A DNA stretch of 64,000 bases from Promethearchaeota archaeon (GTDB lineage Archaea > Asgardarchaeota > Lokiarchaeia > Sigyniarchaeales > SOKP01), in contig JAEOSU010000080.1 of NCBI GenBank assembly GCA_016840165.1, forward strand, positions 150,036 to 214,035, in the 5' to 3' direction. How positions within the stretch are numbered: position 1 is the stretch's first letter; each line of letters opens with the position of its first letter. This document shows, in pieces, positions 12,408 to 57,333 of the stretch. Both the position numbers and the translations under genes were made by a program. Below the pieces are notes generated by a model. It saw only the letters and a list, made by a program, of their open reading frames with translations. It was not told where the DNA came from and did no database searches.

Positions 12408-12737
12408 GGAATGCTCTCTTAAAGGATGTTTAAATAATAAAAACCTTTAAAATATTAATATTTAAGGCAAAAGAAGACAAAAATTTTTTAACCATATTTT
12501 ATTAGATTATGATGTCTTTGCGTGTTCCTGCAACAGTACCTTCTTTTTTTAAGGTTTAATTTTAAAATAACAAGATTAATCTTTCAGAAACAGGATATAT
12601 TTGTTCAAACATTTCTTTAGTTAAATATGATTTTGTTTCTAACTAATTCGTCAATATATATAAAATTTCTATAATTACGAATAACCATATCCACATATTT
12701 AATTTTTCTTTAAATATATTCGGCTAGATTTACTACT

Positions 12738-37318: not shown

Positions 37319-37513
37319 ATGAAAAGTTTATTTAATAACCTAAAAAAAAAGATACATAATTTTCTCAAGGATGATTTCGGGGGGAATCTAATTGAATATG
37401 CTCTTCTTATAGGTTTTGCTCTATTTCTATTTTTTTTAATTGTAGGAATTGTTACTAATCTCTTAGATTGGACTCTGGGACTCAAAGACGACTTTTTTAA
37501 TCTTTTTGGTTAG
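37319..37513 (+). CDS. Flp/Fap-type prepilin
   Basis: Basic leader ..FLKDDFG|GNLIEYALL + hydrophobic helix; E5-Y6 Flp motif; 64 aa. Confidence 0.85.
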   Translation: MKSLFNNLKKKIHNFLKDDFGGNLIEYALLIGFALFLFFLIVGIVTNLLDWTLGLKDDFFNLFG

Positions 37514-37892
37514 TTACTTTCTTTTCTACAAAATTTTCTATGATTTTAAGATTAAATTTATCAGTCCAAATATGTAGATTATTTAAAACAAACATTTTAT
37601 CAACATTAATGTATTCAATAAAATCATCCAAAGGTATTCTATTAGCACCTTTAAATAAATTAATAATTTTTTTATTAATTTCAGAATCTTCAGGTGGAAA
37701 TAAACTTCTCTTTTTAGCTTTCAATCTTTCTAGAATATCATCAAACCTGCCATAATCAAAAAAATGTTCCACTATTCGACTGATTACTGCAGCTGGGCTA
37801 TTTCCAAATACACCTACAAGTTCTTCCACTTGATTCATACTACTTTTACTCAATGTAACAGTTGTTCTTAATGTTTCTATCATAAAGTACAA
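37497..37892 (-). CDS. Ribbon-helix-helix-like DNA-binding protein
   Basis: RTTVTL....VEELVG.FG.S.A.VI. Confidence 0.6.
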   Translation of the reverse strand: MYFMIETLRTTVTLSKSSMNQVEELVGVFGNSPAAVISRIVEHFFDYGRFDDILERLKAKKRSLFPPEDSEINKKIINLFKGANRIPLDDFIEYINVDKMFVLNNLHIWTDKFNLKIIENFVEKKVTNQKD

Positions 37893-38083
37893 TTTTTATT
37901 AATTTAAGTTCAATAATACGAATATTTTTGTCGCTTATAAACTTATGCTAAATGATGATAATAATGCATAAATAAGCATCTTTTTATATTTAATGATTCT
38001 ATATTATATTAAAGAACATGTTTTAGAGATTTTAGCTAAAATGTCGAAAATATGTCGAATTCTTTATTGAATAAAAGATCAAT

Positions 38084-38350
38084 GTGGAGGAAAAAAATAT
38101 GGCTAATAAAGTAATAATGAGCAATTTTGAAAAAAAGGACTTTGTTACTCCATTGCAAAATAATTTAATAAAAGTTCTTGAGAAAGATGGTCCTATTACA
38201 CGAAGAGAGTTGGTTAAAGTTTTGAAAATTCCAAGAACAACGATTTATGATAATCTTTTAAAGTTACAGAGAAGAAAGTTAATTGAAAAATTCTCAAGAA
38301 ATAATGGAAGAAGAGGTAGACCTTTGGTTTTCTGGAGAATTAAAGAATAA
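38084..38350 (+). CDS. Winged HTH transcriptional regulator (TrmB-like)
   Basis: IPRTTIYDNL..L; GRRGRP. Confidence 0.85.
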   Translation: MEEKNMANKVIMSNFEKKDFVTPLQNNLIKVLEKDGPITRRELVKVLKIPRTTIYDNLLKLQRRKLIEKFSRNNGRRGRPLVFWRIKE

Positions 38351-38601
38351 TAAAATTCATTTTTTTCATTATATTTTTTTATTTAAGATACTGCATTATT
38401 TCGACTGCAAATTTTATAATTAAATAATAAAAAAATGTATTAGATAATAATATAATGAAATGGATCCCAGTTTAGAATTATTTTATAATATTTAAATATC
38501 GTTATTAACATTTTAACTATCTTTTAGGCTTTAAAAGCATTTAATTTTTCCATGGGAAATTTTGCAGACAGACTTAAACTATAGATCGCATAAAAGTTGG
38601 T

Positions 38602-40392
38602 TTATTTAGGTATATAATAGTATTCATTTATTCTTTTTTGATAATCATCCTTGTTACTTCCGATTTTATTTACCCGTGGTCTTTTAGTAACCGAATCTCG
38701 TCTAAAAGTGATATCCATAATTTTCAGAAATGCATTAAAACCATCTCTTAGATTTTGTGGTACCCCTGCTATTCCATTTAGTCCAGGATTTCCTTTAAAG
38801 ACAAGAATAGAATCAGCAATGAAATCTTGAGTAATTATATCATGTTCAACTACGAAAGCTGCTTTTTTTAATTCTTCTATCGACTTTCTTAATAATTGAG
38901 CAACTTGCAATCTCATTTCAACATCTAAAAATGCTGATGGTTCATCAAATAAGTAAAGATCTGCTTCTGTCATCAAACATTTTGCTATGGCGACCCTCTG
39001 CAATTCACCACCGCTCAATTCAGAGATCATTCGCTCTTTTATATTTTCCAAATTTAAGTTATTAATTAATCTTTTTTTATATGACTGACTCAAATGTGAG
39101 CTAAGCTTAATACTTTTAATAACTTGACTAATACTTTCTTCATTTTCCATCTTTATATATTGAGGTTTAACGGATACCTTTAGGTTTTCTCCTTTATTTT
39201 CTTTGATATTATTTGATATGATATTAATAAATGTTGTCTTTCCGATTCCATTAGGCCCTAATATACCAATAATCTCACCTAAATGTATTTCACTACCTTT
39301 TACTTCTAGCTGAAAATCTCCTTGAGAGACTTCTAAATCATCATAAGAAAATAAGATATCTCCTGAGCCAAATAATGAATCTAACGGAGGACGTGCATGA
39401 AATTTAATTGGTTCTTCACGAAATCTTAAATTTTCATCTTTAATATATCCATTAAGGTATATATTAATTCCCACGCGTACTCCTTGGGGGTGAGATAAAA
39501 TACCATATACTCCAGGAATCCCATAAAATAATGAAACATAATCGCTTAAATAATCTAATATCGCAAGATCATGTTCAACCACTATTACAATCTTATCGTT
39601 GTCAGTTAACGATCTAATTAATTTTGCCATATTAATCCTTTCACTGACGTCTAAGTAGGAGCTAGGTTCGTCTATAAGATATACATCCCCATCTTTTAGA
39701 TAAGCTGCAGCAGTAGCAACTCTCTGCAATTCACCACCTGAGAGAACTTCAATTTCTCTTTCTAAGATCTCGTTTAAGTTTAAATCATCAACAATTTTAT
39801 CAAGCTTATCATCAAAATCGTTTTTCTTAAGTAAATCATATACTTTACCCGATACGTATTTAGGAATATTAGTAATATCTTGGGGTTTGTGTATAATTTT
39901 TAAGTTTTCTTTTTGTAAATCAACAAAATATTGTTGGAGTTCAGAACCTTTAAAAAAATCAATAATTTCATCATCTTTCGGGACATCACCATTAAACCTA
40001 CCAAAGTTTATCCTTATATCTCCTGACAATATTTTAAGCATTGTACTCTTTCCAATGCCATTTTGCCCAATCAAACCTAACACTTTCCCTTTTTTTGGAA
40101 TTGCCATTCGAAATAAAGTGAATTGATCTGGACCATAACGGTAAGTAATCTGATTCTTGAGGGGATCAGGTAAATTAACAATACTTATTGCATTAAAAGG
40201 ACATTTCTTTATACAAATACCACATCCAGTACATAGATTTTCAATAATTTCTACATTTTTTCCGTCTGGACTTAACACTATGGTGTTATCTCCTGTTCTT
40301 ACTCTTGGACAATATTTTATACATGGTTTCTCTCCAAATGGACTGCATTTTTCTGGTTTACATCGATCTTTATTAAGAACGGCTATTCTCAT
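38602..40392 (-). CDS. rli1: Ribosome recycling ATPase ABCE1/Rli1
   Basis: N-terminal Fe-S cysteines; two NBDs with LSGGELQ; TFRRD..RPRVNK. Confidence 0.98.
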   Translation of the reverse strand: MRIAVLNKDRCKPEKCSPFGEKPCIKYCPRVRTGDNTIVLSPDGKNVEIIENLCTGCGICIKKCPFNAISIVNLPDPLKNQITYRYGPDQFTLFRMAIPKKGKVLGLIGQNGIGKSTMLKILSGDIRINFGRFNGDVPKDDEIIDFFKGSELQQYFVDLQKENLKIIHKPQDITNIPKYVSGKVYDLLKKNDFDDKLDKIVDDLNLNEILEREIEVLSGGELQRVATAAAYLKDGDVYLIDEPSSYLDVSERINMAKLIRSLTDNDKIVIVVEHDLAILDYLSDYVSLFYGIPGVYGILSHPQGVRVGINIYLNGYIKDENLRFREEPIKFHARPPLDSLFGSGDILFSYDDLEVSQGDFQLEVKGSEIHLGEIIGILGPNGIGKTTFINIISNNIKENKGENLKVSVKPQYIKMENEESISQVIKSIKLSSHLSQSYKKRLINNLNLENIKERMISELSGGELQRVAIAKCLMTEADLYLFDEPSAFLDVEMRLQVAQLLRKSIEELKKAAFVVEHDIITQDFIADSILVFKGNPGLNGIAGVPQNLRDGFNAFLKIMDITFRRDSVTKRPRVNKIGSNKDDYQKRINEYYYIPK

Positions 40393-40479
40393 TATTGATC
40401 ACTAAAATTTGAAATGAAAAATGATAAATAATTTTTATCATTTAATTATTAAAGAGTTTCGCTTATTTTGGTGTAGAAT

Positions 40480-42195
40480 ATGAATATAAAGTTTTCCATT
40501 CACTGGTTAGAAGATATTATCAATGAGATTATGGATAGAAAAGTTTCTAGAATTACTTTATCTACAGGAAAAACACCTTCAGGCCATGTTCACATAGGAA
40601 TATTAAGAGAGATTCTTATTTGTGATGCTTTAAGAAGATTATTAGAAAAGAAAGATAAAATTGTAAGATCATTACTTTTTTTAGATTCTCTTGATGCAGC
40701 AAAGAGATTTCCTGATTATATTAAAAAAGGCTTTCAAGATGAACATTTAGGAAAACCATTCTCATATATTCCTTGTCCATATAAAGAATGTGGTTGTGAG
40801 AGCTACGCTCATCATTTTGGTCAAGAATTAATATCCACTTTTGATGATTTTGGAATAAAAAATCAGATAATATGGTCTCATGAATTATATTCTAAAAAAG
40901 AGATGCAAGATAAAATTAAAACAGCATTAGAAAAAACTGAACAAATTAAAGACATTTTAAAAAAATATATACTCCCTACACTCGATGATCAAAGAAAAAA
41001 AGAATTTCTAAAATCGCAAGAAACTTGGATGCCTGCTATGGTAATATGTGAAAAATGTAACAGAATTCAGTTTAAATCAAGAGATGGGTCAATTTTACCG
41101 AATAGGGTTTTAGAATATATAAAAAAGGAGGAAAGTGTCAAATATGAATGCCAATCATGTAATTTCAAGTCAAAAATCTCAATTTATAGTGGAAGACTTA
41201 AACTAAATTGGCGCGTTGATTGGCCTGCAAAATGGGCCTTGTTTAAAACAACTTGCGAACCAGCAGGAAAGGATCATGCTGTAAAAGGTGGTGCTTATGA
41301 CACCGGATTAGAATTATGTCAGAAAATATATGACTATAAGGGCCCCATAAGAGTAGCTTATGAATGGTTACGATTAGGAGAACGCGATATGAAAACATCC
41401 AAGGGAATTGTATTTACACCGAAAAGATATTTAGAGTTAGCAGATCCGAATATCTATAGAATGTTAATTTTAAGGACAAATCCTATGAAGCATATCGCGT
41501 TAAGAATTGAAGAACTACCTCAATATCATGACCAATATGACAAATTAGAGAACATTTATTATGGTTATGAATCTACTGATACAGAAGAAGAAATTGCATT
41601 TTCAAAATATTTGTATCCATTAACAAAAGGAGAAAATGTCACAGAGGAAAAACCCTTAAAAATCCCTTTTAATTTATTAATTTTTTTATCCCAAATTCAA
41701 AATATTTTACCTCTTGAGAAACTATATCAAAAGGCAAATCTAGTTATTAATGATGAAAGATTTGAAAATGTTTACACGTTAAATGATTTCAAGTGGCTTT
41801 TAGATAGAACATTAAACTGGGTTAATTATGTTAAAACCATTATAAAAGAGGAAAAAGATCCAAAAGTAAAAAAAAATATTATGAATAAAGTTACACTTTT
41901 TAATATTCCCGAAGTAATAGATACATCTATTCTAGAAAAGTTGAATTATACTCAAATTAATGGATTAAATATGCTAAGAAATTATCTAATCAATATTGAA
42001 AAATACTCAGCAGATGAGATACAAAATAAAATCTTCCAAATTGCCAAAGAAAAGTTAAAAATAAAGCCAAAAAATCTTTTTGAAGCAATTTATTTAATCA
42101 TTCTGGGTAAGAAGTTTGGACCACGTTTAGGACCATTCTTATCGATATTGGATAGAGATTGGTTATTAGATCGTTTGGATTTAAAAAAGAATTAA
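40480..42195 (+). CDS. lysS: Lysine--tRNA ligase, class I
   Basis: PSGHVHIG, WRVDWP, GKDH, MKTSKG, GPRLG. Confidence 0.97.
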   Translation: MNIKFSIHWLEDIINEIMDRKVSRITLSTGKTPSGHVHIGILREILICDALRRLLEKKDKIVRSLLFLDSLDAAKRFPDYIKKGFQDEHLGKPFSYIPCPYKECGCESYAHHFGQELISTFDDFGIKNQIIWSHELYSKKEMQDKIKTALEKTEQIKDILKKYILPTLDDQRKKEFLKSQETWMPAMVICEKCNRIQFKSRDGSILPNRVLEYIKKEESVKYECQSCNFKSKISIYSGRLKLNWRVDWPAKWALFKTTCEPAGKDHAVKGGAYDTGLELCQKIYDYKGPIRVAYEWLRLGERDMKTSKGIVFTPKRYLELADPNIYRMLILRTNPMKHIALRIEELPQYHDQYDKLENIYYGYESTDTEEEIAFSKYLYPLTKGENVTEEKPLKIPFNLLIFLSQIQNILPLEKLYQKANLVINDERFENVYTLNDFKWLLDRTLNWVNYVKTIIKEEKDPKVKKNIMNKVTLFNIPEVIDTSILEKLNYTQINGLNMLRNYLINIEKYSADEIQNKIFQIAKEKLKIKPKNLFEAIYLIILGKKFGPRLGPFLSILDRDWLLDRLDLKKN

Positions 42196-42220
42196 AAGAC
42201 TTTTTATAATTTATTCTTCA

Positions 42221-42415
42221 TTAAGAATCTACTTGGGGTTTTTTTGATTTTCTAAATCTTCGATACCATTTTCTATCTTTTTTATCTTTTATTTTTTCAT
42301 AGCAATTTGAACAGTAGTTATATGCTTCCTCAATCATTTCACCACATCGTTTACAATGCTTATGAGGATAAATGTCTTCCTCTGCGATTTTTTTATATCT
42401 TTCAAATTTGCTCAA
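42221..42415 (-). CDS. DUF2116-like Zn-ribbon protein
   Basis: PHKHCKRCG...YCSNC. Confidence 0.75.
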   Translation of the reverse strand: MSKFERYKKIAEEDIYPHKHCKRCGEMIEEAYNYCSNCYEKIKDKKDRKWYRRFRKSKKPQVDS

Positions 42416-42461
42416 AATTATTTGCTCTTTCTAATTTTATGATAATTAAGTCTTTGATTAG

Positions 42462-43754
42462 TTATAACTTTTTCACTCCATATGAATCAATTACAACCTT
42501 GAAAAATTGAGCATTCTTTAGCTCTTCTCTTAATATTAAAGGATAATTAGGAAATTTTGATTTAAAGGTATTCTTATCCTTAATTACGTCATTCAATTTT
42601 TTCTGCCATATCTTATGAACATCATTAATTTTCTTTGGATTAACAAGAGCGAAAACAGATCCACCTCCACCTGCTCCAGTTAATTTTACAGCATAGACTT
42701 CAGGCTCATTAATTATTAACTCTATTAAGAAATTATTAGCTAATCCTATTCCATGTTTAAATCCCGCATGATACATAACATTATTCATAATATCTGTATT
42801 TTTTTGAAATAAGTCACCTAATAATTTCCAATCATGATTCATTAAAGCGAATCGAGATTTCCATGATATATCTGCTAGTTCTGAATATCTTTTAATGATT
42901 AATTTTTCCTTTTCCAAATATAATTTTCTTAATTTCTCATGAACTGATCCGCTATCATGCGATATCCCAGAATAGCATATTATTACAGGTAATTGTTTTA
43001 TTTTATATATTCTATCAATCCTATCGCATACTGCAAGAGGTTCAGATCCAATTTTCCGCTGATTCAGCTTTCCCACATAGGATATGAAACAAAGTCCCCC
43101 CCTACTGATTATATATCGATCAGAATATCCTGCTACGATTTTTAAGTCTATTTGTTCTACTTTTGCTGCAATTTCAGCAAGGGTGTCCTTATTAATAGGA
43201 AAATTATTTTCTCTCAAGTCGGAATTTTTTTGTATTAAATCAAAAAATTGAGTAAAAGCATAAAGAAAAGCTATAATGATTGAAGCACTCCCTCCTAATC
43301 CACTCTGTTTTGGAATTGTAGTTATAATACCGATTTCAATATTCTGAGCTAGGAGAGCATCTTTATAATATATATTAGTCTGAAATAAGCGATAGACAGT
43401 AGCATAAAATAATAAAAATTCAGAATTTCTATGATTAGATAAGTTGTCAATTTGCTTTACGAGATCTTCTTCACATTCTAATATAAATTTGTATTTATTT
43501 TGAATTACTTTTACATTATATTTTGATATTTTACTCTTTGAATGGGTTTTTTTAATGTAAACAAACGTAGATAAAGGATTCACGATGCCATTAATTGCAA
43601 CAGAAGGCATCCAAAAATCCGCTTCAACAGCATCTAAGGGGTTAATTAAGTTTATCCTTGATGGTGATTGAACAATAATATCTGGCTTTAATCCTTTAAT
43701 AAAATCTTTTATTGCATCTAACAAATTAACCATGTTTAATTTTGAGTAAGTCAC
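42462..43754 (-). CDS. GHMP-family sugar kinase
   Basis: PKQSGLGGS; KLTGAGGGG. Confidence 0.9.
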   Translation of the reverse strand: MTYSKLNMVNLLDAIKDFIKGLKPDIIVQSPSRINLINPLDAVEADFWMPSVAINGIVNPLSTFVYIKKTHSKSKISKYNVKVIQNKYKFILECEEDLVKQIDNLSNHRNSEFLLFYATVYRLFQTNIYYKDALLAQNIEIGIITTIPKQSGLGGSASIIIAFLYAFTQFFDLIQKNSDLRENNFPINKDTLAEIAAKVEQIDLKIVAGYSDRYIISRGGLCFISYVGKLNQRKIGSEPLAVCDRIDRIYKIKQLPVIICYSGISHDSGSVHEKLRKLYLEKEKLIIKRYSELADISWKSRFALMNHDWKLLGDLFQKNTDIMNNVMYHAGFKHGIGLANNFLIELIINEPEVYAVKLTGAGGGGSVFALVNPKKINDVHKIWQKKLNDVIKDKNTFKSKFPNYPLILREELKNAQFFKVVIDSYGVKKL

Positions 43755-43898
43755 ATAAAATTATTGGCAATAAAAATTTTATTTCAATTTTAAATCAAGA
43801 TTTACTAATTCTTTTGTAATAATTAATCCAGGATCTCATTTGTTCTAATATCTTTTAAAAATATATAAGTTTTTAAAGCTGTCATAAGAAATATTGAG

Positions 43899-45020
43899 GT
43901 GGTAAATAAAAAGGGAAAGTTTAGATTGTTATCATATTTAGTAGACTCTAATTTAATTTATTACAAGAGTGTGAATAAGAAAAAGAAAATTCTAGGATTT
44001 GCTTTATTTGAACTCTCAGGTGATTTTTATATTGATAAGATTCTTCAAAACTTTGTAAAAAGAGGTTTAATATTATTTTATTCAATTGAAATTAACATTA
44101 TTACTCCTGATAAAGTAATTTACATTTTGTGTATAAATCATAATAATAAAAGTGAGATTTTTAAAATTTTTAATTTAATCTCCTATAAACTTCATCAAGT
44201 GGACCCATCAATATTAATTCTTAAAGATAATAAATTAGAAAAGGAATTTCTGAAAATAATATCTTTAGATACTAATAAAAATTACTTAATGAGCGATATT
44301 ATCGGATCAATAAGAGTGAAAAATGAGTCTTCGATAATAACCTTGGATTTTTATCTGATGAATTTAGATAAAGTGCCTGAACCTAATGAAATTATATTTC
44401 AGTTTATGGATTATATTAAAAGTATAAAGAGGTTTGGATATTTGATCTTCAATTTTCAACTAATTAATAATAACATTTCTGCTAATATTTATTATATTGA
44501 TTTTATCAATGAAAATGATATTCAAAACTCCAATTTAGAGTCTAATGTTAATGATTTTTTTGGTTTTGAGTTAATCAATAAAGTCAAACTTAAAATGAAA
44601 AACATTTTTTATCCTCTTTGGCGTTTTAGATTAACTAAAACCAACTCTAACTTCCAATATATTTCTAAAATCCTTAACCGTACACAATATTATAACCAAA
44701 AAAATTTATCAAAATTTATTTTGGAATTTAAACAATTAATGGAGGTTAATGGAATAGAATTTAATCAATTCAGTCAAAATTTATTTTTTGTTGAGCAATC
44801 TACCCTAGTCATTATTTTAGTTAATAGACATTTCAAGTATCTAATGAATATCATAAAAAAGTTCCGCTCAAAATATCAGCTTTTAGTAATATTACTAAAT
44901 AATAAGGATTACGATGATCTCATTAAATTGGATAAAATTAACTCCATACCTAATCTGAAAATAATTAACTATGAGAAGTTTTGCCAATTTGATATAAAAA
45001 ATCTAAAAATAAACGAATAA
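43899..45020 (+). CDS. Hypothetical protein
   Basis: 373-aa ORF, no motif recognised. Confidence 0.65.
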   Translation: MVNKKGKFRLLSYLVDSNLIYYKSVNKKKKILGFALFELSGDFYIDKILQNFVKRGLILFYSIEINIITPDKVIYILCINHNNKSEIFKIFNLISYKLHQVDPSILILKDNKLEKEFLKIISLDTNKNYLMSDIIGSIRVKNESSIITLDFYLMNLDKVPEPNEIIFQFMDYIKSIKRFGYLIFNFQLINNNISANIYYIDFINENDIQNSNLESNVNDFFGFELINKVKLKMKNIFYPLWRFRLTKTNSNFQYISKILNRTQYYNQKNLSKFILEFKQLMEVNGIEFNQFSQNLFFVEQSTLVIILVNRHFKYLMNIIKKFRSKYQLLVILLNNKDYDDLIKLDKINSIPNLKIINYEKFCQFDIKNLKINE

Positions 45021-45284
45021 TTAAAAAATACCTAAATCTATGGCAATATCTTGAGCAGAATAATCCGGATGTAATTTTATAAAAGCTTTTTTCTCCCCCT
45101 TAGGTGTAATGAGAGAATTAACTTTTATTACTTTAACATTATGAATTTTTTCTATAGCTCGTTTAATTTCCCTTTTATTCGCCGATTTGTCAACTATGAA
45201 TACTAGTTTGTTTTGTTGCTCAATTAAATCAAAAGTCTTTTCAGTAATAAGAGGTCTTTTAATAATTTTATAAAAGCTTTCCAT
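45021..45284 (-). CDS. rpl23: 50S ribosomal protein L23
   Basis: [18 protein letters not shown]. Confidence 0.97.
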
Positions 45285-46073
45285 CTACATGCTCACCTCT
45301 ATATTATTTAATTCATCAAATGCAGATTGGCTCCATAGAATTAATCTGCCAATTGAACCACCTGGTGCTAGCATATTAATGGATATATTATTGTATTTGA
45401 TGATATCGATTCCAGGTATATTCCTTACTGCTTTAGTGATCCCAAAATCTTCTTTGATTACAAATAGTACTCCTTTTTTCTTCTTGTACTTGCGCCCTCT
45501 TCTTTTGCCCTTTCCTGCTCTAATCTTTTTTGAGTCTTTACATTTTTTTATTTCAGGAGTTAATCCTAAATCAGAGAAAATTTTAAATGCCGCAGAGGTT
45601 TTTTTTACGGTTTGTATTTTATCATCAACAACAAGCGGAATCTCTGGTATGTTATCAATCATGTGACCTCGAGACTTAACCCAGGCAATATCTCCCGATG
45701 CAGAAATTGCAGATAATAAAGAATAATTATAAGATTTTTTATTAATTTTTTTCTTTAACACTTTTTCTGTCTTTATTGGATGTGAACGACGCCCTCCAAC
45801 TGCGAATGGTACTCTTCCAACATTTCGGGCAGTTGAGAAACCTGCTCCTTTAATTCTCGGGGCACGTGACATTCCATGTCCAGTTCCCCAGCTAGCTGCA
45901 GTGTTTCTTAAACCCGCTCTTTTATCTCTACCTTGAAGTTGTTTATTTCGACTTTCAAAGACTTCATTTGCTTTTTGAACAAGATCCTTACGAGGCTTTA
46001 TTTTAAAAACATTTGGTCTATCAAGTGTTCCTTTTTTTTTTCCATCCAGACTATAAACATTTACTTTTTCCAT
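45285..46073 (-). CDS. rpl4: 50S ribosomal protein L4
   Basis: SWGTG, GGRR.HP, RAGKGK.RGR, LAPGG. Confidence 0.98.
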   Translation of the reverse strand: MEKVNVYSLDGKKKGTLDRPNVFKIKPRKDLVQKANEVFESRNKQLQGRDKRAGLRNTAASWGTGHGMSRAPRIKGAGFSTARNVGRVPFAVGGRRSHPIKTEKVLKKKINKKSYNYSLLSAISASGDIAWVKSRGHMIDNIPEIPLVVDDKIQTVKKTSAAFKIFSDLGLTPEIKKCKDSKKIRAGKGKRRGRKYKKKKGVLFVIKEDFGITKAVRNIPGIDIIKYNNISINMLAPGGSIGRLILWSQSAFDELNNIEVSM

Positions 46074-46092
46074 TTAAAATACCTTTTGTTTA

Positions 46093-47118
46093 TTATTTCC
46101 TTTGTTGGCTTTCTCGACTGATAAATGTTATTTCTGGAGCAGAGGCGATAAAAGATTTAACTGGACGAATGGTTTTTCTAATTCTTATCAATCTCTTTTT
46201 AGGTCCGGGAAGTGATCCTAGAATAAGTAAATAATCCCCTTTAATCATACCATAACGTATAAATCCGCCTTTTGGATTTATTTCCTCTTCATTCTCACCT
46301 ATTAACATGATTCTTTTATGATATTCTGTTCTTTGGTGGTATCCAAGTTGTCCAGGTCTTGGAACTGTATATAATACTCTAGCTGGATGCCAAGGACCTA
46401 TACATGCAACTGCTCTTCGTATTTTACTATTTTTTCTTGGAAGAATTTTAATTCCAAATCTTTTCACTGGTCCTTGAAAGCCCTTTCCCTTACTAACAGC
46501 AATAATATCAATTAGTTCTCCCTGTGTCAAGACATCACGGGCTCTTATTTCTTTCCCTAATCGTTCTAATGCATAGCTGAGTGTATCAAAAGGATCTCCC
46601 GAAGAATTCAGCTTTATTTCAATGATATCTGGTTTTTTTCTAGCAATTGATATCAAATAAGGTTGTGTTTGGAAAATTCCTCGTATTTCACTTTTTTTAT
46701 TTAAGGAACCTGTAATTGATTCTTTTATCTCATCAAAATTATAATTTTCAGGGTTGGGTGTTGAAATCTTACGTTTTAAGTTATTGTTAAATTCATTTGC
46801 ATAGAGTTCTCCTTGTACATATCGACCATATTCATCCTTATTATAAACACGGATTCCGATAAGAATTAATGGTGGTACCTCAACGATAGTGACAGGTTTC
46901 ATTAATTCTTTTCCATAGTAAGGACTATTTTTTTGATCTTCGATATATGTGATATGAGTCATACCTGCTTTAAAACCAGCAAAGCCTAAAAAGTTAATAT
47001 CTTCAGTGCTGTCTTTCCAATGTCTTATTCGACCTTTTTCTGATAGTGCTCTCTTTCTAGGTAGATATGCTAAGGAACCATGCCTTGGAGCATGCTTTTT
47101 GCGATGACCCATATCCAA
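46093..47118 (-). CDS. rpl3: 50S ribosomal protein L3
   Basis: PRHGSL, KAGMTH, KGKGFQG, GPWHP. Confidence 0.98.
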   Translation of the reverse strand: MDMGHRKKHAPRHGSLAYLPRKRALSEKGRIRHWKDSTEDINFLGFAGFKAGMTHITYIEDQKNSPYYGKELMKPVTIVEVPPLILIGIRVYNKDEYGRYVQGELYANEFNNNLKRKISTPNPENYNFDEIKESITGSLNKKSEIRGIFQTQPYLISIARKKPDIIEIKLNSSGDPFDTLSYALERLGKEIRARDVLTQGELIDIIAVSKGKGFQGPVKRFGIKILPRKNSKIRRAVACIGPWHPARVLYTVPRPGQLGYHQRTEYHKRIMLIGENEEEINPKGGFIRYGMIKGDYLLILGSLPGPKKRLIRIRKTIRPVKSFIASAPEITFISRESQQRK

Positions 47119-47243
47119 TCACTTATAATTTAAAAATTTAAATTATTCAAATTAAAAAAAGTTTTGTATTCATTCTTTAAATGATGGTTTGAATGGATAT
47201 TAAAAATTCGTTCTTTTTATCATTTAATTAAAATTAAAATAAT

Positions 47244-49430
47244 ATGTCGTTGAATTTAAAAAATCTCTACTATTTTGAAGAGAAAGAAAACTTTGAAGGA
47301 AAAAAGGAGAAAACCTTAATCCTTAATTGTAATAATTGTCCTGACAAAAATAACTCCTTTTCAGAGTATGAAAAATGTTTTGAATGCATCTTACAGAATT
47401 TCTATAAGAAAAGACACGATAAACTATCAAGTATATTCATTAAAAAATTCAAAATTACGATTAATGAACTAGCTTTAAAAAAATATCTGCAATATTTTAA
47501 GATTATAAATAAATTAAAAAAATATTGGAGAAAAATAGAATCTTTCAAAGATAAGTATTGTATCTATGAAGATTTCAATTGTAAATTATATAATAAGGAT
47601 GCCCCACTCCTTTCATTAACACCAAATGATTTTTTTAATCCTGTGTTTATTTTTAATTCAATTAAAGAAAAATATGAAAGAATTAAAAATATCGATATTA
47701 TTGATCCTACCTGTAAAAGATGTGTTTACAAAATTAAAAATATCTTAAATTTCATTATAAAAGATTTAATTAATTTAGATTTAATCAAGCAATTTAAGAA
47801 TACATTAAAAGGAGATATAGATTCAAATAAATTAAATAATATCTATCAAAAATTATTAGGAATTAATGAACAAGAATTCAATAATAGTGACAATGCTCCA
47901 TTAATAAAAAATCTTGAACCAAAAAAACTAATTGAAATTTACAAGATAGGAGATTATGGAATATTTGATGTTCACATTTATAAAATACCATTTGAATATG
48001 AAAAAAGATATTCTTTAAGATTCGCGATCGAAAGTGATACTCAGGATAGTTACATAAATAAACTCCTGAGAGACATTTCATCTAATATCCACATATTAGA
48101 ATTAAAGCAAACAATCTCATTAGAAAAATTGCTACAAATTTATGAAGCTAAAGCAACAGCATACATTAATACTAAATATAACTTTGATCAATTAATCTCA
48201 AAGAAAATAGCATTTCTAGCGAGTCTTCAAAAACTTAATCTATTGAAGATTTTTCCGTTATTAATTGATGATAATATCGAGGAGGTATTTTTAGATTCTC
48301 CCATCGATAGAATATATATAAATCATCAAAAATATGGAAGATGTAGAACTGATATTAATTTATCTTTTGATGAAATTGAAAGGATAAAAACTTTTTTAAG
48401 GCTATATAGTGGTAAAAGACTCGATTATTCAAATCCCTCATTGAAATATGTTTTAAAGAATAAATATTTTTATTGTAGATTCGCTGTTGATATAGATCCC
48501 ATCCATTCAAATAAATTTGGATTAGATATAAGGAAACTGAATAAAAATATATATACAATTCAAGACTTAATAAAAAAAGAATCTTTAAACCCTTTAATGG
48601 CAGCATTTTTATATTTTTGCATTTTACGTAGAATAAATCTTACAGTGACTGGTCAAACAGACACGGGTAAAACTACATTGATTAATGCATTAGATTTAAT
48701 AGCACCAAAAGAATATAGGAAAGTTTATGTTGAAGATATAACAGAATCTTTAAACGAATCAGAATTTGGAAGACATCAGATAAAATTTAAAGTAGATTCA
48801 ATCGAAAGTATGATTGAGAAAAAATTTTCAAAGCAAAATCAAATTAAAAATTTACTTCACCGTACTCCTGATATAATTTATTTAGGAGAGATACTTACTA
48901 AAGAAGAAGCGGAAGCAATGTTCCATTGTTTAGCTGCAGGTTTGAGTGGTTTTCAAACAATACATTCGAAGGATTTAAACTCATTAGTAAATCGTTTTCT
49001 GTATCATTTTAATATCAATGAATCCTGTTTGAATGACTTGGATTTGATAATATTTATGAAAAAATATCGTGAAGGGCGAAAAATTATCTCAATATCAGAA
49101 ATCTCTGATTATGCTCCAAATTCAAATAATATCAATAATATTTTATTTCTTTTTAATCCAAAAACTTCCAAATGGGATTTAAAATCAGATTTGTTTAAAA
49201 CGAGAACCATTAATCAATTAAAGATGGTAGAAGATCTGTCAGTTAATAGTTTTAATAATTATCTTTCAATTTATCAAGATATTTTTCAATTTCTTCTTAA
49301 TTCTGAGAAATTAGATAATCAAGAATTAGTTGCATTATTTGATAAAATAAATTATTTCTCTTTCAAATCATATACTGCTTTATATGATTATTGGCAAAAA
49401 TGGAAAAAGTATAGAGGTTTAAATCATTAA
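47244..49430 (+). CDS. Type II/IV secretion (CpaF/TadA/ArlI-like) ATPase with Cys-rich N-terminal extension
   Basis: LIDDNIEEV, DIRK, GQTDTGKT, VED, PDIIYLGEI, TIHS. Confidence 0.93.
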   Translation: MSLNLKNLYYFEEKENFEGKKEKTLILNCNNCPDKNNSFSEYEKCFECILQNFYKKRHDKLSSIFIKKFKITINELALKKYLQYFKIINKLKKYWRKIESFKDKYCIYEDFNCKLYNKDAPLLSLTPNDFFNPVFIFNSIKEKYERIKNIDIIDPTCKRCVYKIKNILNFIIKDLINLDLIKQFKNTLKGDIDSNKLNNIYQKLLGINEQEFNNSDNAPLIKNLEPKKLIEIYKIGDYGIFDVHIYKIPFEYEKRYSLRFAIESDTQDSYINKLLRDISSNIHILELKQTISLEKLLQIYEAKATAYINTKYNFDQLISKKIAFLASLQKLNLLKIFPLLIDDNIEEVFLDSPIDRIYINHQKYGRCRTDINLSFDEIERIKTFLRLYSGKRLDYSNPSLKYVLKNKYFYCRFAVDIDPIHSNKFGLDIRKLNKNIYTIQDLIKKESLNPLMAAFLYFCILRRINLTVTGQTDTGKTTLINALDLIAPKEYRKVYVEDITESLNESEFGRHQIKFKVDSIESMIEKKFSKQNQIKNLLHRTPDIIYLGEILTKEEAEAMFHCLAAGLSGFQTIHSKDLNSLVNRFLYHFNINESCLNDLDLIIFMKKYREGRKIISISEISDYAPNSNNINNILFLFNPKTSKWDLKSDLFKTRTINQLKMVEDLSVNSFNNYLSIYQDIFQFLLNSEKLDNQELVALFDKINYFSFKSYTALYDYWQKWKKYRGLNH

Positions 49431-49446
49431 CTCAAAAATTTAAAAT

Positions 49447-49860
49447 ATGACAAACTTAATTGAGAAGACATTATTAATTGGATTTGGAATCTTTATCGCT
49501 TCTATCTTTCTTACATTTTCAATCCCATTTTTTGGTCATATCTTTAATTATTATAATATTATTGAGGATGATTTGAATGATTATCTTAAAGTAATCAATG
49601 AAATTGATGACGGTATTCTGTACATCATTGATAATCCAAATCAAATTTATCAGAAGGAAATTCATTATCCTGATAATTTGAATATAACTCTTGATCATCA
49701 ATATATAAATTTTGAATATTATTTTCAAGGAGAGGTTTTTGATATTACTCTTAAGTATAATACTACCTTAAAATCTTGTAAATATTGTGAAATTGTAGCC
49801 CAATCTTATCTTTATCGAGTTTTTTTTGATGAAAATTTAATTAAAATTGAAATTATTTAG
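49447..49860 (+). CDS. Minor pilin-like protein lacking a class III leader
   Basis: TNLIEKTLLIGF parallels mature Flp GNLIEYALLIGF; lies between ATPase and platform genes. Confidence 0.65.
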   Translation: MTNLIEKTLLIGFGIFIASIFLTFSIPFFGHIFNYYNIIEDDLNDYLKVINEIDDGILYIIDNPNQIYQKEIHYPDNLNITLDHQYINFEYYFQGEVFDITLKYNTTLKSCKYCEIVAQSYLYRVFFDENLIKIEII

Positions 49861-51400
49861 TAATTTAAGCGATCTCATGAACCTTTTACCTAAATATCTC
49901 TGGATATGTAATAAAATTCATAATCTCTCTTTACCAAAAATTAAATTTAGAACTCTAAATACTCATTATAAAAAAATCTATCAAAAACATTACAATATTC
50001 ACGAGGAGGATATAAATAAGACAACTTTTTTAATCTTCTCGAGTGTATGGATAACTTCTATTCTAGTGGCTTTCTTATTCAATCTCAATTTTGCGATCAT
50101 TAGCTTAGGTTCTTTCATTTTTGCTCTTGCTTTATCATATGCATTCAATAGTTATCTCTTTAAAAAAATACTTAAAAATGAAATAAGAATGAATGCAATC
50201 CTTTATTTTATTAAGATTAATTTTTCAATCTTAAAGGAATCTTTAAGTAAGGATTCTGATTTTATTTTATCATTCATAAGCTTAATAAAAAACTATAAAA
50301 TACCAATTTCAAAAATATTTAATTCAGTTTTAATAAAGATTCACCAAGGATATAATCCAGAAAGGGAATTAAGTAAAATTATTACTCCTTCCGATGAATT
50401 TAACAATTATATAAAAAATTTCGTTCTTGGACCCACTTTAAATGATAGTCGCGTTCTTGAATTAGATTCTAACATGTTGGAGCATAGATTTAAGGTATAT
50501 TTACATCAGCTTGAAACTAGAATGAGTCTTATATTCTTTATTGGAGTATTCTTTCCTTTAGGCTTTTGCTTTTTGATTTTGTTTTATAAATCATTCATAA
50601 TTTTTTCCATCTTTTTTCTTCCTCTCTTTTTCTTTTTAATAAATGCTTTATTCAAGAAGCTTATAAGAAATGATGCTTTTCTTTTTGGTTTATTAGGCAG
50701 CTACAATAAATTTGAAAAAAGAAAATTTAATGAGTTTATTTATTTCCTTAAAAATTTCGCCATCCAACTTCAGGAAAATCTGTCACCTGAATCTGCTTTT
50801 ATCAATGCCTGCTTTAATACTAATATTGAATTAGATTTATTATCCACCCCTTTTAAAAATCAAATTTCTAATCTTTTAACTTTATCCACTACATTCGCAG
50901 AAATGATAGATCTGTTGAAACATCATATGAAATCTGTTCGTTATTATTTAATATTAGATATCATCAAAGAAATAGTAAGTAACAATGCTTTAAATTCATC
51001 TAAAAAAATTTTTGGTATTTTAAACATCATCTCTAATCATCAAAAACTTGAAAGGAAATTAGAGACCGTGATGAAAGGTGAAAAATTCAAAGTTTTTATG
51101 TTCCTTTTTTTATTACCTACTATTATTGGAGCAATCGGTGGAATGTTTCCTATTTTTACATTATTAATTGAAAATTTAAATTTAAAGGAAATGATGAATC
51201 CTCAAAATTTATTTGAAATAATTCTTTCATTTGATTTTATTATAATTTACCTAACATTATTCGCTTGCATTTTAATATCTTCATACTTTTTACTTAAAAC
51301 GATTAAATCTTCAAGAATTAATGCGTTTTTAACAGTAATTTTTATAGTTTATTCACTCCTATTCTTCTTATCATTTTACAGCGCCATAACCTTCTTATAA
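49847..51400 (+). CDS. TadB/TadC (T2SSF)-like membrane platform protein, duplicated domain
   Basis: Two repeats of TM + 'GYNPE' / 'NLSPE' cytoplasmic domain; follows ATPase. Confidence 0.7.
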   Translation: MKLFSNLSDLMNLLPKYLWICNKIHNLSLPKIKFRTLNTHYKKIYQKHYNIHEEDINKTTFLIFSSVWITSILVAFLFNLNFAIISLGSFIFALALSYAFNSYLFKKILKNEIRMNAILYFIKINFSILKESLSKDSDFILSFISLIKNYKIPISKIFNSVLIKIHQGYNPERELSKIITPSDEFNNYIKNFVLGPTLNDSRVLELDSNMLEHRFKVYLHQLETRMSLIFFIGVFFPLGFCFLILFYKSFIIFSIFFLPLFFFLINALFKKLIRNDAFLFGLLGSYNKFEKRKFNEFIYFLKNFAIQLQENLSPESAFINACFNTNIELDLLSTPFKNQISNLLTLSTTFAEMIDLLKHHMKSVRYYLILDIIKEIVSNNALNSSKKIFGILNIISNHQKLERKLETVMKGEKFKVFMFLFLLPTIIGAIGGMFPIFTLLIENLNLKEMMNPQNLFEIILSFDFIIIYLTLFACILISSYFLLKTIKSSRINAFLTVIFIVYSLLFFLSFYSAITFL

Positions 51401-51404
51401 ACTC

Positions 51405-51704
51405 TTAATTGAAAAGAAATACATAAATTAGCTCAATGAATAAAAATATACCTATAAAAGTGATTATCAATTTGCAGGAATATAAAATGTAACTGAACAT
51501 CAATCCATCTGAAAAAGGTAATATGTTTATTGAATTATTTAAGCTTTCAATTATGACAGAAAACGGAATTAACAGAAATAAAAACGCCAGAAACCCTATT
51601 AAAATAACCAATAAATCACTTGAAATAGTAGAATAAATAAAAATAAATAAGATACACATCATAATTGAAATTAATTCTATCAAAATGAGATTAAAATGAT
51701 ACAT
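51405..51704 (-). CDS. Small 3-TM protein
   Basis: Hydrophobic ORF. Confidence 0.5.
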   Translation of the reverse strand: MYHFNLILIELISIMMCILFIFIYSTISSDLLVILIGFLAFLFLLIPFSVIIESLNNSINILPFSDGLMFSYILYSCKLIITFIGIFLFIELIYVFLFN

Positions 51705-51859
51705 TGCTCTGAAGAGAATATGAAAGCATATATTTAAAGCTCGAAAATTTATAAGTTATAAAAGTTGCTTATTAATTAGTTAAGGATTTAATTGATTTTT
51801 GAAAATAGGTACCAATTATAAATAAATAGGAATTAATATTAATATTTTAAAAAAAAAGA

Positions 51860-52360
51860 TTGATAATTATGAGAAATTTAAAATTAAAAGGATTGAAGTA
51901 TAGTAAGGGAAAATATGAATTATACAATAATCGATTTATTTTTTTCCCTCCACAGATTATTGATATCCTTTCCTCAATTTATGGCGAGGGTGTTAAATCT
52001 TTATTAGTTTGGCTTGGTAAAAAGGCAGGCTGGGCATTGATTCAAAATTGGGATGAGAATCTAAAGTCTAAAACATTAAATGATATAGTAAATCATTTTT
52101 GTAGCATTATAAGCAATCATGGTTGGGGTAAATTTGTTCCGAAGCAGATATCTGAAGACTTAGTTATAATTGAAGTATATCATAATGTCTCTACTGAATT
52201 AGAGGGAAAGTCTAAGAATATTTGTTATTTCTTAACTGGTCTTTTAACAGGTTTTGGAGAGTACGCACTCTATAGAGTGAACATTTCAGAATCTAATTGT
52301 AGTATAAGTAATCCTAATTTAGAATCTTGTGAATTTAAGATTGAAAAAGTAAAACCGTAA
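51860..52360 (+). CDS. V4R domain protein (Bet3/TRAPP-related fold)
   Basis: LGKKAG, GWG, C.F..G...G, E..C......C.F. Confidence 0.85.
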   Translation: MIIMRNLKLKGLKYSKGKYELYNNRFIFFPPQIIDILSSIYGEGVKSLLVWLGKKAGWALIQNWDENLKSKTLNDIVNHFCSIISNHGWGKFVPKQISEDLVIIEVYHNVSTELEGKSKNICYFLTGLLTGFGEYALYRVNISESNCSISNPNLESCEFKIEKVKP

Positions 52361-52366
52361 TTAATA

Positions 52367-52756
52367 TCACCAAGGATCCCACTCTTCGGGATTTAATTTC
52401 TCATCGGAAATTTTTTTTTCTAACATATTTGAAGATTCCGACTCTGTTGAATACAAATCTGCTTTAAAATCTTCTTGTTCCTTGGTATTTTCTTGTATAT
52501 TTGTATCAATTAAAGTTTGTTCTGATAAAAATGAATCTTCTCCAATTACCACATCTTTAAAAGCAGATATCAAGGATAAGAAGTTAAAAAACTCCTCTTT
52601 ATTCATTTCACTCATAAGTGAATTATCTTCCTTAAATAAAGTCAGCTTAATCGCCCTAACTTCACCACTAATTTCAACAGATGTTAATTCAATACTCTCA
52701 TTTTTTCTTTTTAATTGTATTTTCCATGAAGTTTCTCTAGTTTTTTCAATTTCCAT
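52367..52756 (-). CDS. Hypothetical protein with acidic tail ending EEWDPW
   Basis: 129-aa ORF. Confidence 0.65.
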   Translation of the reverse strand: MEIEKTRETSWKIQLKRKNESIELTSVEISGEVRAIKLTLFKEDNSLMSEMNKEEFFNFLSLISAFKDVVIGEDSFLSEQTLIDTNIQENTKEQEDFKADLYSTESESSNMLEKKISDEKLNPEEWDPW

Positions 52757-52956
52757 TATTAATAAATCCCATTAAGATAATTCTGAAGTCATTAATGTAA
52801 TAAAAATTAACAAATATAAAATTTTATTTCTTGGGGTAAGTTCTATGGGTTAAGGAGCTTGCATTAATAATAAATCTCGCTCAAAAATGAATAAATAAGA
52901 AGAAAAAAGGCTTATTTAATAAAGAGAATTATATAAACTATCATTCTACTTGAAGT

Positions 52957-53643
52957 TCATACTACAAACAAAAAGTAATAGCTTACAATTATTAATATAA
53001 TAAGAGGAGGTCTAGATTGAGTTAAAACCTCTAAGGCCTTAGTTTTAAAATTAAAATATAACTTATTGTTTTTTATTATAAATTTATTTTTGTTTAATGA
53101 ATCCAGATGTGAATAAATTCTAAATCTACAAAATGAAGTAAAATAAATCCGCTTAGACTTCGAATTAATACCATTTGTCATGAAAAATTGAATAAATGAT
53201 AACTTTTTGTTAAAGAAATTATTATAAATTAAATTTTTCCATATAAAGAGTGATTGGAATATTAAAAAATATATCATATACTTGAAAATTAGTGAAAAAC
53301 TAAAAATCTTAATAGGAATCATAAGGAATAAAATTATAATTAATTTACCGTCTGCACCTCCAATAATTTTGAGATTATATAAGAAGAAAGCAATTGAAAA
53401 AGTTAAAACAACAATAACTGCTTTAATAGTTAAAAAAAATGCGATAATATACGAATTAAATATTAATTCAATGGCATTAACAGCTAAAATGATTAAAAAT
53501 GTATATTTGAAAAAAGAAATTGGGATCCTCCGATATTTTATATCAAAATATAAACTATAGAACATAATGGAATTATTAATAATGAACATAAAACCGTAAA
53601 ATAAATAATTGGCCATTCTTCTTTTATTTCTCCCAGATTTCAA
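52957..53643 (-). CDS. Prepilin peptidase (A24 family); start may be MANYLF
   Basis: D(IKY)RRIP and GGADGK catalytic aspartates; multi-TM. Confidence 0.9.
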   Translation of the reverse strand: MKSGRNKRRMANYLFYGFMFIINNSIMFYSLYFDIKYRRIPISFFKYTFLIILAVNAIELIFNSYIIAFFLTIKAVIVVLTFSIAFFLYNLKIIGGADGKLIIILFLMIPIKIFSFSLIFKYMIYFLIFQSLFIWKNLIYNNFFNKKLSFIQFFMTNGINSKSKRIYFTSFCRFRIYSHLDSLNKNKFIIKNNKLYFNFKTKALEVLTQSRPPLIILIIVSYYFLFVV

Positions 53644-53911
53644 TAAAATGTTTCAAACTTTTTGCTTTTATATTTTCAATTTTAAATCTAAATATTTTAA
53701 TTCTTCCAAAATTCTTTTCTTGTACAATATTCATTGATTTCAAGAAATCCAAATGCTTCCTAACACATGAATGATTTAAATTTGTGCTTTTGATAATTTG
53801 CGATATTGAGAGTTCAAGATCTAAAGCCAATATCTTTAAAATTTTTATCCTTGCTTTTGATCCAAAGCATTTTTCAAATTTAAAACAATCTTCTCTATTA
53901 TTTATGCTCAA
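53624..53911 (-). CDS. ArsR-like winged HTH protein
   Basis: FGSKARIKIL; LNH..V.KHL..L; FGRIKI. Confidence 0.85.
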   Translation of the reverse strand: MSINNREDCFKFEKCFGSKARIKILKILALDLELSISQIIKSTNLNHSCVRKHLDFLKSMNIVQEKNFGRIKIFRFKIENIKAKSLKHFIEIWEK

Positions 53912-56940: not shown

Positions 56941-57333
56941 GTGATTAATATTAAGGAAGATGTTAAAAAAATGGCAAATCTTCTAAAATCAGGTTATACA
57001 ATGCTAAATCTAGCATGTCCTGTTTGTAATAACCCGGTATTTAGAAATAAAAATGGAGATACTTTTTGTCCAATCTGTAATAGGAAAGTCTTACTCATTA
57101 ATCATGAGTTATCTGATGATGAAGATAAGAATCATATACCAATAATTCAAAATAAAGAAAGTAACAGAGAAGTAAATAATATTACTATTTATCAGGATTT
57201 GAAGCGTGTCGCGATTATGAAAGTAAAAAATTTCACTAATTTATTAGAAAATGAGAAAGATATTGATATTGTTGATAAATTAACTCGTTCTTTAATCCAA
57301 TTGATTACTTTAATTAACCAAATCAGGGAATAA
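56941..57333 (+). CDS. UPF0148 / SSSCA1-like Zn-ribbon protein
   Basis: MANLLKSGYTML..CPVC.NP....FCPIC. Confidence 0.88.
   Translation: MINIKEDVKKMANLLKSGYTMLNLACPVCNNPVFRNKNGDTFCPICNRKVLLINHELSDDEDKNHIPIIQNKESNREVNNITIYQDLKRVAIMKVKNFTNLLENEKDIDIVDKLTRSLIQLITLINQIRE

Follow-up and report, generated by a model that had tools for sequence, protein, structure and literature searches.

A type IV filament gene set with a headless Flp-like prepilin in a Lokiarchaeial genome and its relatives in sampled Asgard archaea

Do a few pilus-like genes scattered among the core genes of an Asgard archaeon belong to one machine and, if so, to which lineage of machines does it belong? The question is raised by a 64,000-nucleotide stretch of DNA (the window, meaning the whole stretch that was analysed) from the genome of a Promethearchaeota archaeon of the Lokiarchaeia (GenBank assembly GCA_016840165.1, contig JAEOSU010000080.1, positions 150,036 to 214,035 of the forward strand), in which a first-pass annotation had proposed a dispersed, Tad/Flp-like pilus system. 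We recovered all five of its parts, a prepilin, an assembly ATPase, a small pilin-like protein, a platform protein and an A24 peptidase, at the same positions. These genes, here called the module, together make up a single type IV filament (T4F) machine, anciently inherited, whose pilin is Flp-like and headless. We put at roughly 0.75 the probability that the region is the Lokiarchaeia version of a T4F machine found in most sampled Asgard archaea, one that most likely assembles a thin, headless pilus in the style of Flp or Epd.

Parts of the filament machine

The five parts are as follows, with a slash marking the predicted cleavage site here and below:

37319..37513, + strand: Flp-like 'headless' prepilin, 64 residues, predicted to be cleaved after Gly21 (DDFG/GNLIEY)
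47244..49430, + strand: type IV filament assembly ATPase, 728 residues (Pfam T2SSE, E = 3.2e-15)
49447..49860, + strand: leaderless pilin-like protein p137, 137 residues, starting M-TNLIEK, with no family match
49847..51400, + strand: fused two-domain platform protein of TadB/TadC or ArlJ type, 517 residues, its start overlapping the end of the p137 gene by 14 nucleotides
52957..53643, - strand: A24 aspartyl prepilin (class III signal) peptidase with no methyltransferase domain (PF01478, 31.4 bits; cut-off 26.5)

The prepilin consists of a basic leader, the motif FG/GNLIEY, a 22-residue hydrophobic helix and a short tail. All features of a class III signal peptide are present in the predicted protein (basic leader, small residue at -1, hydrophobic helix and Glu at +5), and the predicted mature pilin would be 43 residues long with its Glu at +5. 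The short Flp-like pilin with Glu5-Tyr6 that had been proposed is therefore confirmed in the sequence, as G/GNLIEY. The sole Pfam match of the prepilin was to Flp_Fap (PF04964) and fell below threshold (E = 0.081, 13.2 bits; cut-off 32.2); the same family recurred as the best match of 20 of the 45 members of the pilin family (best E = 0.0027). Across these 45 members the Glu at +5, one Phe and one Trp are invariant, and position -1 is Gly or Ala, Gly being nearly invariant. A profile search seeded with eight orthologues retrieved 565 proteins, and all 120 of those listed carry Asgard labels. The homologue in P. syntrophicum MK-D1 (ORF L032:6566-6772, with which the sequence agrees), whose predicted mature form would begin SSTIES, has been named 'Flp family type IVb pilin' by NCBI, and other homologues 'Flp pilus assembly pilin Flp' by JGI; our literature search found no paper linking a Flp-type pilin with Asgard archaea. 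Three motif scans of the genome found no second convincing prepilin.

The peptidase is the only Peptidase_A24 match in the genome and contains both motifs with Asp residues of predicted catalytic type, YFD34IKYRRIP and GGAD98GK. In the ATPase the Walker A, Walker B, Asp box and His box motifs are intact, and they are invariant in 13 aligned orthologues. The ATPase also has an N-terminal extension of ~290 residues with cysteines in a CxxC...CxxC arrangement (C29, C32, C45 and C48); of these, C45 and C48 are invariant among the orthologues, C32 almost so.

The p137 gene starts 16 nucleotides past the ATPase stop codon. An in-frame TAA (49441-49443) lies three bases upstream of its ATG, which excludes a leader. 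Members of the p137 family share the N-terminus M-T-N-L-x-E-K with an invariant Glu6. In hhalign, residues 2-33 of p137 aligned to Flp-family residues 22-53 (probability 87%, E = 4.1e-6); Glu6 is thereby paired with the Glu at +5 of the prepilin, and Met1 corresponds to prepilin position -1. In an AlphaFold (AF2) model of p137 with a predicted local distance difference test score (pLDDT) of 89, a helix spanning residues 2-62 is followed by a five-stranded sheet, which in the model gives the predicted protein the overall shape of a type IV pilin. Foldseek searches with this model returned only noise (E above 0.1), and in VIA-align all Z scores were below 5, the top match being the type 4 pilin subunit 8pfb_G (Z 4.7), which scored level with numerous simple long helices. 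ATPase-adjacent proteins in two other Asgard families (L156 and L157) start with M-x4-E-K/R followed by a hydrophobic stretch and are candidate homologues of p137.

For the platform protein, we obtained an AF2 model from 14 orthologues (pLDDT 78). It predicts a repeated plan, in which transmembrane (TM) helices, a helical cytoplasmic domain, TM helices, a second helical domain and further TM helices follow one another. Residues 285-410 of the model matched SpoIIIAB (Z 10.7), the N-domain of PilC (Z 10.1, 103/103 residues, 2.7 A), EpsF (Z 9.3) and TcpE (Z 8.1) in VIA-align. Four of the top five domain-sized rows are the same GspF-type domain, although the tool warns that a Z of ~10 for helical bundles can reflect common arrangements. 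A profile search of 1.8 billion representative sequences found only 211 proteins, and the distant matches among them, of ~220-290 residues, each cover only the first or the second half of the platform protein. Pfam T2SSF was detected in 14 of 30 distant relatives (best E = 2.9e-11) and is touched by one of the 14 orthologues (E = 0.0024); a genome-wide search with T2SSF gave no match. Other Asgard families have two separate platform genes 3' of the ATPase gene, encoding ~240-300 residues each, with profile matches of 1e-9 to 1e-21, and one of these split genes exceeds the T2SSF cut-off. Because the split relatives match single halves and many of those examined carry T2SSF, we read the 517-residue protein as two units, one TadB-like and one TadC-like, fused into one chain. 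The platform is thus, on the indirect support of a predicted fold and of transitive T2SSF homology, a two-domain protein of the T2SSF type. The duplicated TadB/C-like platform of the first-pass annotation is borne out in this form, fused here and divided between two genes in other Asgard families. With ATPase, platform, A24 peptidase and prepilin each recognized in this way, the window holds the complete minimal T4F gene set that had been proposed.

Linkage, distribution and descent

As had also been proposed, the pilus genes are embedded among core genes: ABCE1, class I LysRS, GHMP kinase, Orc1/Cdc6 and the ribosomal proteins L3, L4 and L23 are encoded in the same stretch. The host genome measures 3.6 Mb and has ~27% G+C. 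In a genome-wide T4F inventory, a T4F-type ATPase, an A24 peptidase and a convincing Flp-type open reading frame (ORF) were each found once; being single-copy, the ATPase, peptidase and prepilin are without alternative partners in this genome. A second T2SSE match of 554 residues (G000:C4:49977-51641; L002:718-2382) was rejected as a pilus locus, its context being unrelated and its neighbours including neither platform nor pilin genes. By eye, the N-terminus of this protein resembles a PIN domain.

We compared 95 loci, many of which end at contig ends. The ATPase gene was found in 93 of them, the p137 gene in 81, in each case immediately 3' of the ATPase gene, the platform gene in 77 and the A24 gene in 61. 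Within the genus, gene order is kept: p373, L4-L3, ATPase-p137-platform, tm99, p166, p129 and A24-wHTH-cdc6 (the neighbouring genes are described below). The 16-nucleotide gap between the ATPase and p137 genes and the 14-nucleotide overlap of the p137 and platform genes are operon signals. In the sister family f2, which includes P. syntrophicum MK-D1, the genes are contiguous in the order flp-cdc6-wHTH-A24 peptidase-ATPase-small pilin-like-platform, the A24 gene between the wHTH and ATPase genes encoding 163-210 residues (Pfam E = 1.4e-7 and 5.7e-9).

In a phylum-wide sample of 81 Asgard genomes, an ATPase orthologue was present in 77 (called at 290-500 bits, versus 130-180 for FlaI-like paralogues), and the mini-pilin and an A24 peptidase in 73 each, linkage of the peptidase to the module being restricted to Lokiarchaeia. 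Outside family f1, pilin and ATPase genes are at most 2.5 kb apart in 36 of 64 genomes and at most 11 kb apart in 48, and they are still adjacent in one genus of the window's own family (G080). The common order elsewhere in Asgard archaea is TFB paralogue, ATPase, two platform genes, pilin. Given this closeness of pilin and ATPase genes in other lineages, the 10-kb gap between them in the window's genus is a secondary local rearrangement. The dispersed layout noted in the first-pass annotation is a genus-level rearrangement of an ancestrally compact cluster and no feature of the system itself. Co-occurrence of the parts across genomes, which it had offered as a check, was found together with their linkage.

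These data bear on whether the five genes might be unrelated neighbours, the small ORFs having arisen by chance in AT-rich DNA. In favour of this stand the shortness of the pilin ORF and its distance of 10 kb from the other parts, together with the lack of an above-threshold family match for it and for the 137-residue ORF. However, both small ORFs encode conserved proteins that occur in dozens to hundreds of genomes, and the pilin gene adjoins the ATPase cluster in other lineages. The reading is already contradicted by these observations and we give it virtually no credence. Co-membership of the parts goes beyond chance because they are single-copy in the genome and show synteny and adjacency across the phylum.

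In NCBIfam the ATPase scores best on the FlaI model, with 98 bits (cut-off 550), versus 405-459 bits on the same model for the FlaI-like ATPases of Asgard genomes. Among sequences of solved structures in the PDB, it matched afGspE (2oap) at 101 bits, FlaI (4ii7) at 80 and CpaF at 42, and among bacterial plasmids its top matches are all CpaF. The nearest clusters in the ESM Atlas, in which Thermoproteota is the commonest phylum, are a lead only. We built a tree of 45 ATPase core domains, comprising 29 of the module family (from ~20 Asgard families), 10 FlaI-like Asgard sequences, 3 annotated CpaF proteins and a TrbB/VirB11 outgroup, a set without named Epd, Aap, Ups or 4D sequences; the tool flagged long branches and unequal composition in it. 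The module ATPases form one Asgard clade with support of 100/100 on a long stem (1.86 substitutions per site). In the best tree this clade is sister to the FlaI-like group, from which it is separated by a branch with 100/100 support, and CpaF falls outside both. Constraining the module ATPases and CpaF to group together cost 9.7 log-likelihood units and was not rejected by the approximately unbiased (AU) test (p = 0.233).

Could the locus then be a bacterial Tad (type IVc) locus that was gained by horizontal transfer and later broken up? Such an origin would account for the Flp motif G/xxxxEY in the pilin and for the CpaF matches among plasmids, and the constrained tree is compatible with it. 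We nonetheless consider it highly improbable. The ATPase is found in 77 of the 81 sampled Asgard genomes and across ~20 families as a single clade, the best tree puts CpaF outside both the module family and the FlaI-like ATPases, PDB scores favour the archaeal ATPases over CpaF, and G+C content is uniform along the region (~25-29%). Moreover, no secretin (RcpA/CpaC), CpaB/RcpC, TadD, TadG or TadZ/CpaE was found among the region's ORFs, no dedicated genome-wide search for them having been run. Outer-membrane and periplasmic parts of Tad systems are not expected in a monoderm archaeon. Membership of the Tad lineage, as suggested by the first-pass annotation, is not supported for the ATPase, which belongs to a separate, Asgard-wide clade with CpaF outside it in the best tree, the alternative topology not being rejected. 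The label 'Tad-like' suits the pilin and the doubled platform, whereas the ATPase may or may not descend from the Tad lineage.

Neighbouring genes and putative regulators

The genes around the module include candidate accessory parts and candidate regulators:

43899..45020, + strand: p373, 373 residues, function not assigned, a possible accessory part whose module membership is uncertain
51405..51704, - strand: tm99, small polytopic membrane protein, 99 residues, a conserved neighbour with no family match in Pfam or NCBIfam
51860-52360, + strand: p166, 166 residues, weakly matching the C-terminal portion of MsvR (NCBIfam, 1.5e-5)
52367-52756, - strand: p129, acidic, 129 residues, between the platform and peptidase genes
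53624..53911, - strand: ArsR-type winged-helix (wHTH) regulator, putative regulator of the module (Pfam HTH_5, 2.7e-8), overlapping the cdc6 and peptidase genes
53908..55113, - strand: Orc1/Cdc6 paralogue, heading the cdc6-wHTH-peptidase string
55378-56586, - strand: 402-residue protein with an N-terminal signal-like segment, many N-x-S/T sites, a C-terminal TM anchor and a Lys-rich tail
56941-57333, + strand: Zn-ribbon protein of the 'Autoantigen p27' family, 130 residues (PF06677, 5.3e-16), a family that eukaryotes share
57736..58752, - strand: module-specific TFB (TFIIB) paralogue, 338 residues, with a Zn ribbon and one detectable cyclin (TFIIB) repeat
59444-60124, + strand: Arf-family small GTPase, just past the TFB paralogue

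The TFB paralogue (Pfam TFIIB, 3.2e-6; Zn_Ribbon_TF, 5.6e-6) lies ~8.3 kb from the ATPase gene in the window, outside the operon, and had not been listed in the first-pass annotation. A profile built from TFB-like genes flanking the ATPase gene in other Asgard families gave it 427.6 bits and the other TFBs of the genome at most 74 bits; such TFB-like genes adjoin the ATPase gene in loci L153, L157, L163, L164, L168 and L169. The Orc1/Cdc6 paralogue is one of three in the genome and is 25-28% identical to the other two (G000:C64:14653-15846 and G000:C36:22214-23353). The cdc6-wHTH pair lies beside the module in families f1 and f2 and at most 10 kb away in several others. We can only infer that the Orc1/Cdc6 paralogue may regulate the module.

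This setting brings up a functional reading that does not exclude the T4F machine proposed above, namely a pilus induced by damage or stress for aggregation and DNA exchange, an Asgard counterpart of the Ups/Ced systems of Sulfolobales with Cdc6 and TFB as its regulators. The conserved, co-oriented string of cdc6, wHTH and peptidase genes speaks for it, as do the proximity of cdc6-wHTH pairs to the module in several Asgard families and the possession of a TFB paralogue of its own. Set against this, a Cdc6 gene in such a core-gene setting may be no more than the mark of a replication origin, linkage of the peptidase is confined to Lokiarchaeia, and no promoter motif, expression data or Ced/VirB4-like DNA-translocation component was examined or seen in the window. 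We regard this function as unlikely.

In the small-genome Asgard family f5, a ParA/MinD-type ATPase gene (L156:11223-11888, - strand; Pfam ParA, 2.2e-12) adjoins the pilus ATPase gene, an arrangement reminiscent of TadZ/CpaE in Tad loci and of FleN/MinD in other archaeal type IV pilus loci.

Among the remaining neighbours, tm99 likely belongs to the pilus machine: its gene adjoins the platform gene in 43 of the 95 loci, and a relative of ~100 residues lies directly beside paralogous ATPase copies. The p373 gene is kept in 79 of the 95 loci and directly adjoins paralogous ATPase copies in L038, L087 and L095. No Pfam match was found for p373, and the idea that it might be a degenerate TFB was rejected (hhalign probability 0.3%). 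The p166 and p129 genes are retained in most loci of the window's family, p166 also in L031. The gene for the 402-residue protein, which sits between cdc6 and the TFB paralogue and has no Pfam match, could encode a surface or adhesin-type protein.

The paralogous ATPase copies occur in some genomes of the genus, as a second copy in other settings. One form (L090, L098, L104, L115 and L117, at ~3900-10500 in each) comprises a 905-residue membrane protein, a Lys-rich protein of ~240 residues, a leaderless pilin-like protein of ~125 residues, the ATPase, a 100-residue membrane protein and a TrmB-type regulator; the 905-residue protein might replace the platform in these loci. The other form (L038, L087 and L095, at ~6500-12500) comprises a 98-residue membrane protein, a p373 homologue and the ATPase. 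Small GTPases similar to the Arf-family protein of the window adjoin paralogous ATPase copies in other genomes, for example at L038:8258-8836 (- strand). MglA-type GTPases steer type IV pili in Myxococcus, and by analogy a link between the neighbouring small GTPase and the pilus machine is conceivable.

Filament assembly and relation to known systems

How might these parts work together? The 64-residue prepilin would enter the membrane, and the sole A24 peptidase would cut off its basic 21-residue leader after Gly21, leaving a 43-residue helix with a Glu at +5. A hexameric ATPase would dock on the cytoplasmic domains of the fused platform, and ATP would drive the lifting of pilins from the membrane onto the base of the filament. 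The pilin-like helix of p137 begins at the mature position, hence p137 would be independent of the peptidase; its role may be that of a minor pilin, a priming pilin or an anchor. The TFB paralogue, the wHTH protein and the Orc1/Cdc6 paralogue nearby probably control expression. The filament, we infer, would act in adhesion to surfaces or between cells. Adhesion to syntrophic partners or DNA uptake, the uses suggested in the first-pass annotation, are plausible. Cultured Asgard archaea live closely with partner microbes.

Several points weigh against a functional pilus of this kind. Cleavage, assembly and the filament itself are predictions made from genes. The curated Flp_Fap cut-off is reached by none of the 45 members of the pilin family. 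The platform protein has no direct match in Pfam or NCBIfam, its profile found no relevant match among PDB sequences, Foldseek found nothing with the whole model, and its VIA-align scores fall under the caution given above. The closest published system, subclade 4D, has been read as a possible non-functional remnant or repurposed machine (PMC4858521, PMC13705601), and thin fibres on a cultured Asgard archaeon, discussed next, were seen with no basal machine (bioRxiv 10.1101/2025.07.22.663070).

Two reports describe appendages with no gene assignment, thin 3-nm fibres on N. marumarumayae (bioRxiv 10.1101/2025.07.22.663070) and pili on a Heimdallarchaeon (bioRxiv 10.1101/2025.11.06.686947). The module is a genetic candidate for such fibres and pili, which are without known genes, on cultured relatives of eukaryotes. 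A more far-reaching version of our proposal joins these threads. It holds that an ancient headless-pilin T4F machine is common to the sampled Asgard archaea and perhaps to TACK archaea, that it is functional and builds the ~3-nm fibres of Lokiarchaeia, that the leaderless pilin bypasses the peptidase, removal of its Met exposing a mature-type N-terminus, and that the machine may be the archaeal stock from which Epd and Tad arose. We put this forward tentatively, as a possibility with the odds against it.

A 2026 survey in PLoS Genetics found ordered T4F loci to be rare in Asgard genomes and most systems to be ambiguous (PMC13705601). Against that picture, the module is one conserved, linked set with pilin, peptidase, ATPase and a platform, the last of which standard models miss, and profiles made from the set would enable T4F detection tools to find the system. 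For work on P. syntrophicum and other cultures it also provides concrete targets, whether by proteomics, cryo-electron tomography or expression analysis, and the leaderless pilin-like protein and the TFB and Cdc6 paralogues give rise to testable ideas on assembly priming and regulation.

The module resembles Tad/Flp systems (type IVc; Flp, TadV/CpaA, TadA/CpaF, TadB and TadC) in its tiny headless pilin with the motif G/xxxxEY and Glu5-Tyr6, in a peptidase that consists of the A24 domain only, in having CpaF as the best bacterial match of its ATPase and, like tadB and tadC, in two T2SSF-type platform units that are separate genes in most Asgard families. Unlike Tad, it has an ATPase of a separate Asgard clade with a Cys-rich N-terminal extension of 290 residues, a leaderless pilin-like protein in place of pseudopilins of the TadE/F type, and attached TFB and Cdc6 paralogues; its pilins never pass the Flp_Fap cut-off, and secretin, CpaB, TadZ and TadG are not among the region's ORFs (again with no dedicated genome-wide search).

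The Epd pilus of Methanococcus maripaludis ('T4F system 1') has two platform genes and a dedicated peptidase, its parts including EpdL, EpdJ/K and a short pilin (arCOG06620) that is processed by EppA. Asgard systems were not assigned to T4F system 1 in the published survey (PMC13705601). ATPases of the FlaI/ArlI type (FlaI 4ii7, afGspE 2oap) belong to the same fold family as the module ATPase, are its best matches of solved structure and form its sister group in the best tree; they differ in that the module ATPase scores only 98 bits on the FlaI model and is set apart by a branch with 100/100 support.

Of published systems, subclade 4D, from Pyrobaculum and Thermoproteus, comes closest by description, a link that the first-pass annotation had not drawn. 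Its ATPase has an extra small N-terminal domain bearing conserved Cys residues, its membrane proteins are highly diverged, short and TadC-like, it has no pilin, and its neighbourhood encodes a single-cyclin TFIIB paralogue that also carries a Zn finger; an altered function was suggested for the system (PMC4858521). The likeness of the module, in the Cys-bearing ATPase domain, the diverged TadC-like proteins and the single-cyclin TFIIB paralogue, is one of published description, the level at which the families concerned (arCOG05558 for the ATPase, arCOG05557/arCOG13890 for the membrane protein and arCOG05559 for TFIIB) were compared.

This resemblance raises the possibility that the module, too, derives from a T4F but has been repurposed and builds no external pilus, serving instead as a short membrane pseudopilus in secretion or in the remodelling of membrane or envelope, or in a transcription-linked function. 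A function with no external pilus was raised for 4D by Makarova et al. in 2016 (PMC4858521) and by the 2026 survey (PMC13705601), the transcription-linked one owing to the TFIIB gene in the 4D operon (PMC4858521). In the module, the long ATPase stem (1.86 substitutions per site), the novel Cys-rich N-domain, the highly diverged platform and the retention of TFB and Cdc6 paralogues nearby would fit such repurposing. The argument for 4D, however, was based on a missing pilin, whereas here a conserved prepilin of class III type is linked to the ATPase gene phylum-wide, the peptidase is present and the ATPase motifs are intact; a TFB paralogue near pilus genes is, moreover, common in archaeal type IV pilus loci and fits regulation (PMC4858521). 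Repurposing of the module in this sense is in our judgement improbable, and a machine that assembles a headless pilus is the reading that we prefer. What sets the module apart from 4D is its conserved Flp-like prepilin, together with the leaderless pilin-like protein, a linked peptidase and one fused platform. The window contributes a Lokiarchaeia-specific fused platform, a conserved leaderless pilin-like gene and a cdc6-wHTH-peptidase string.

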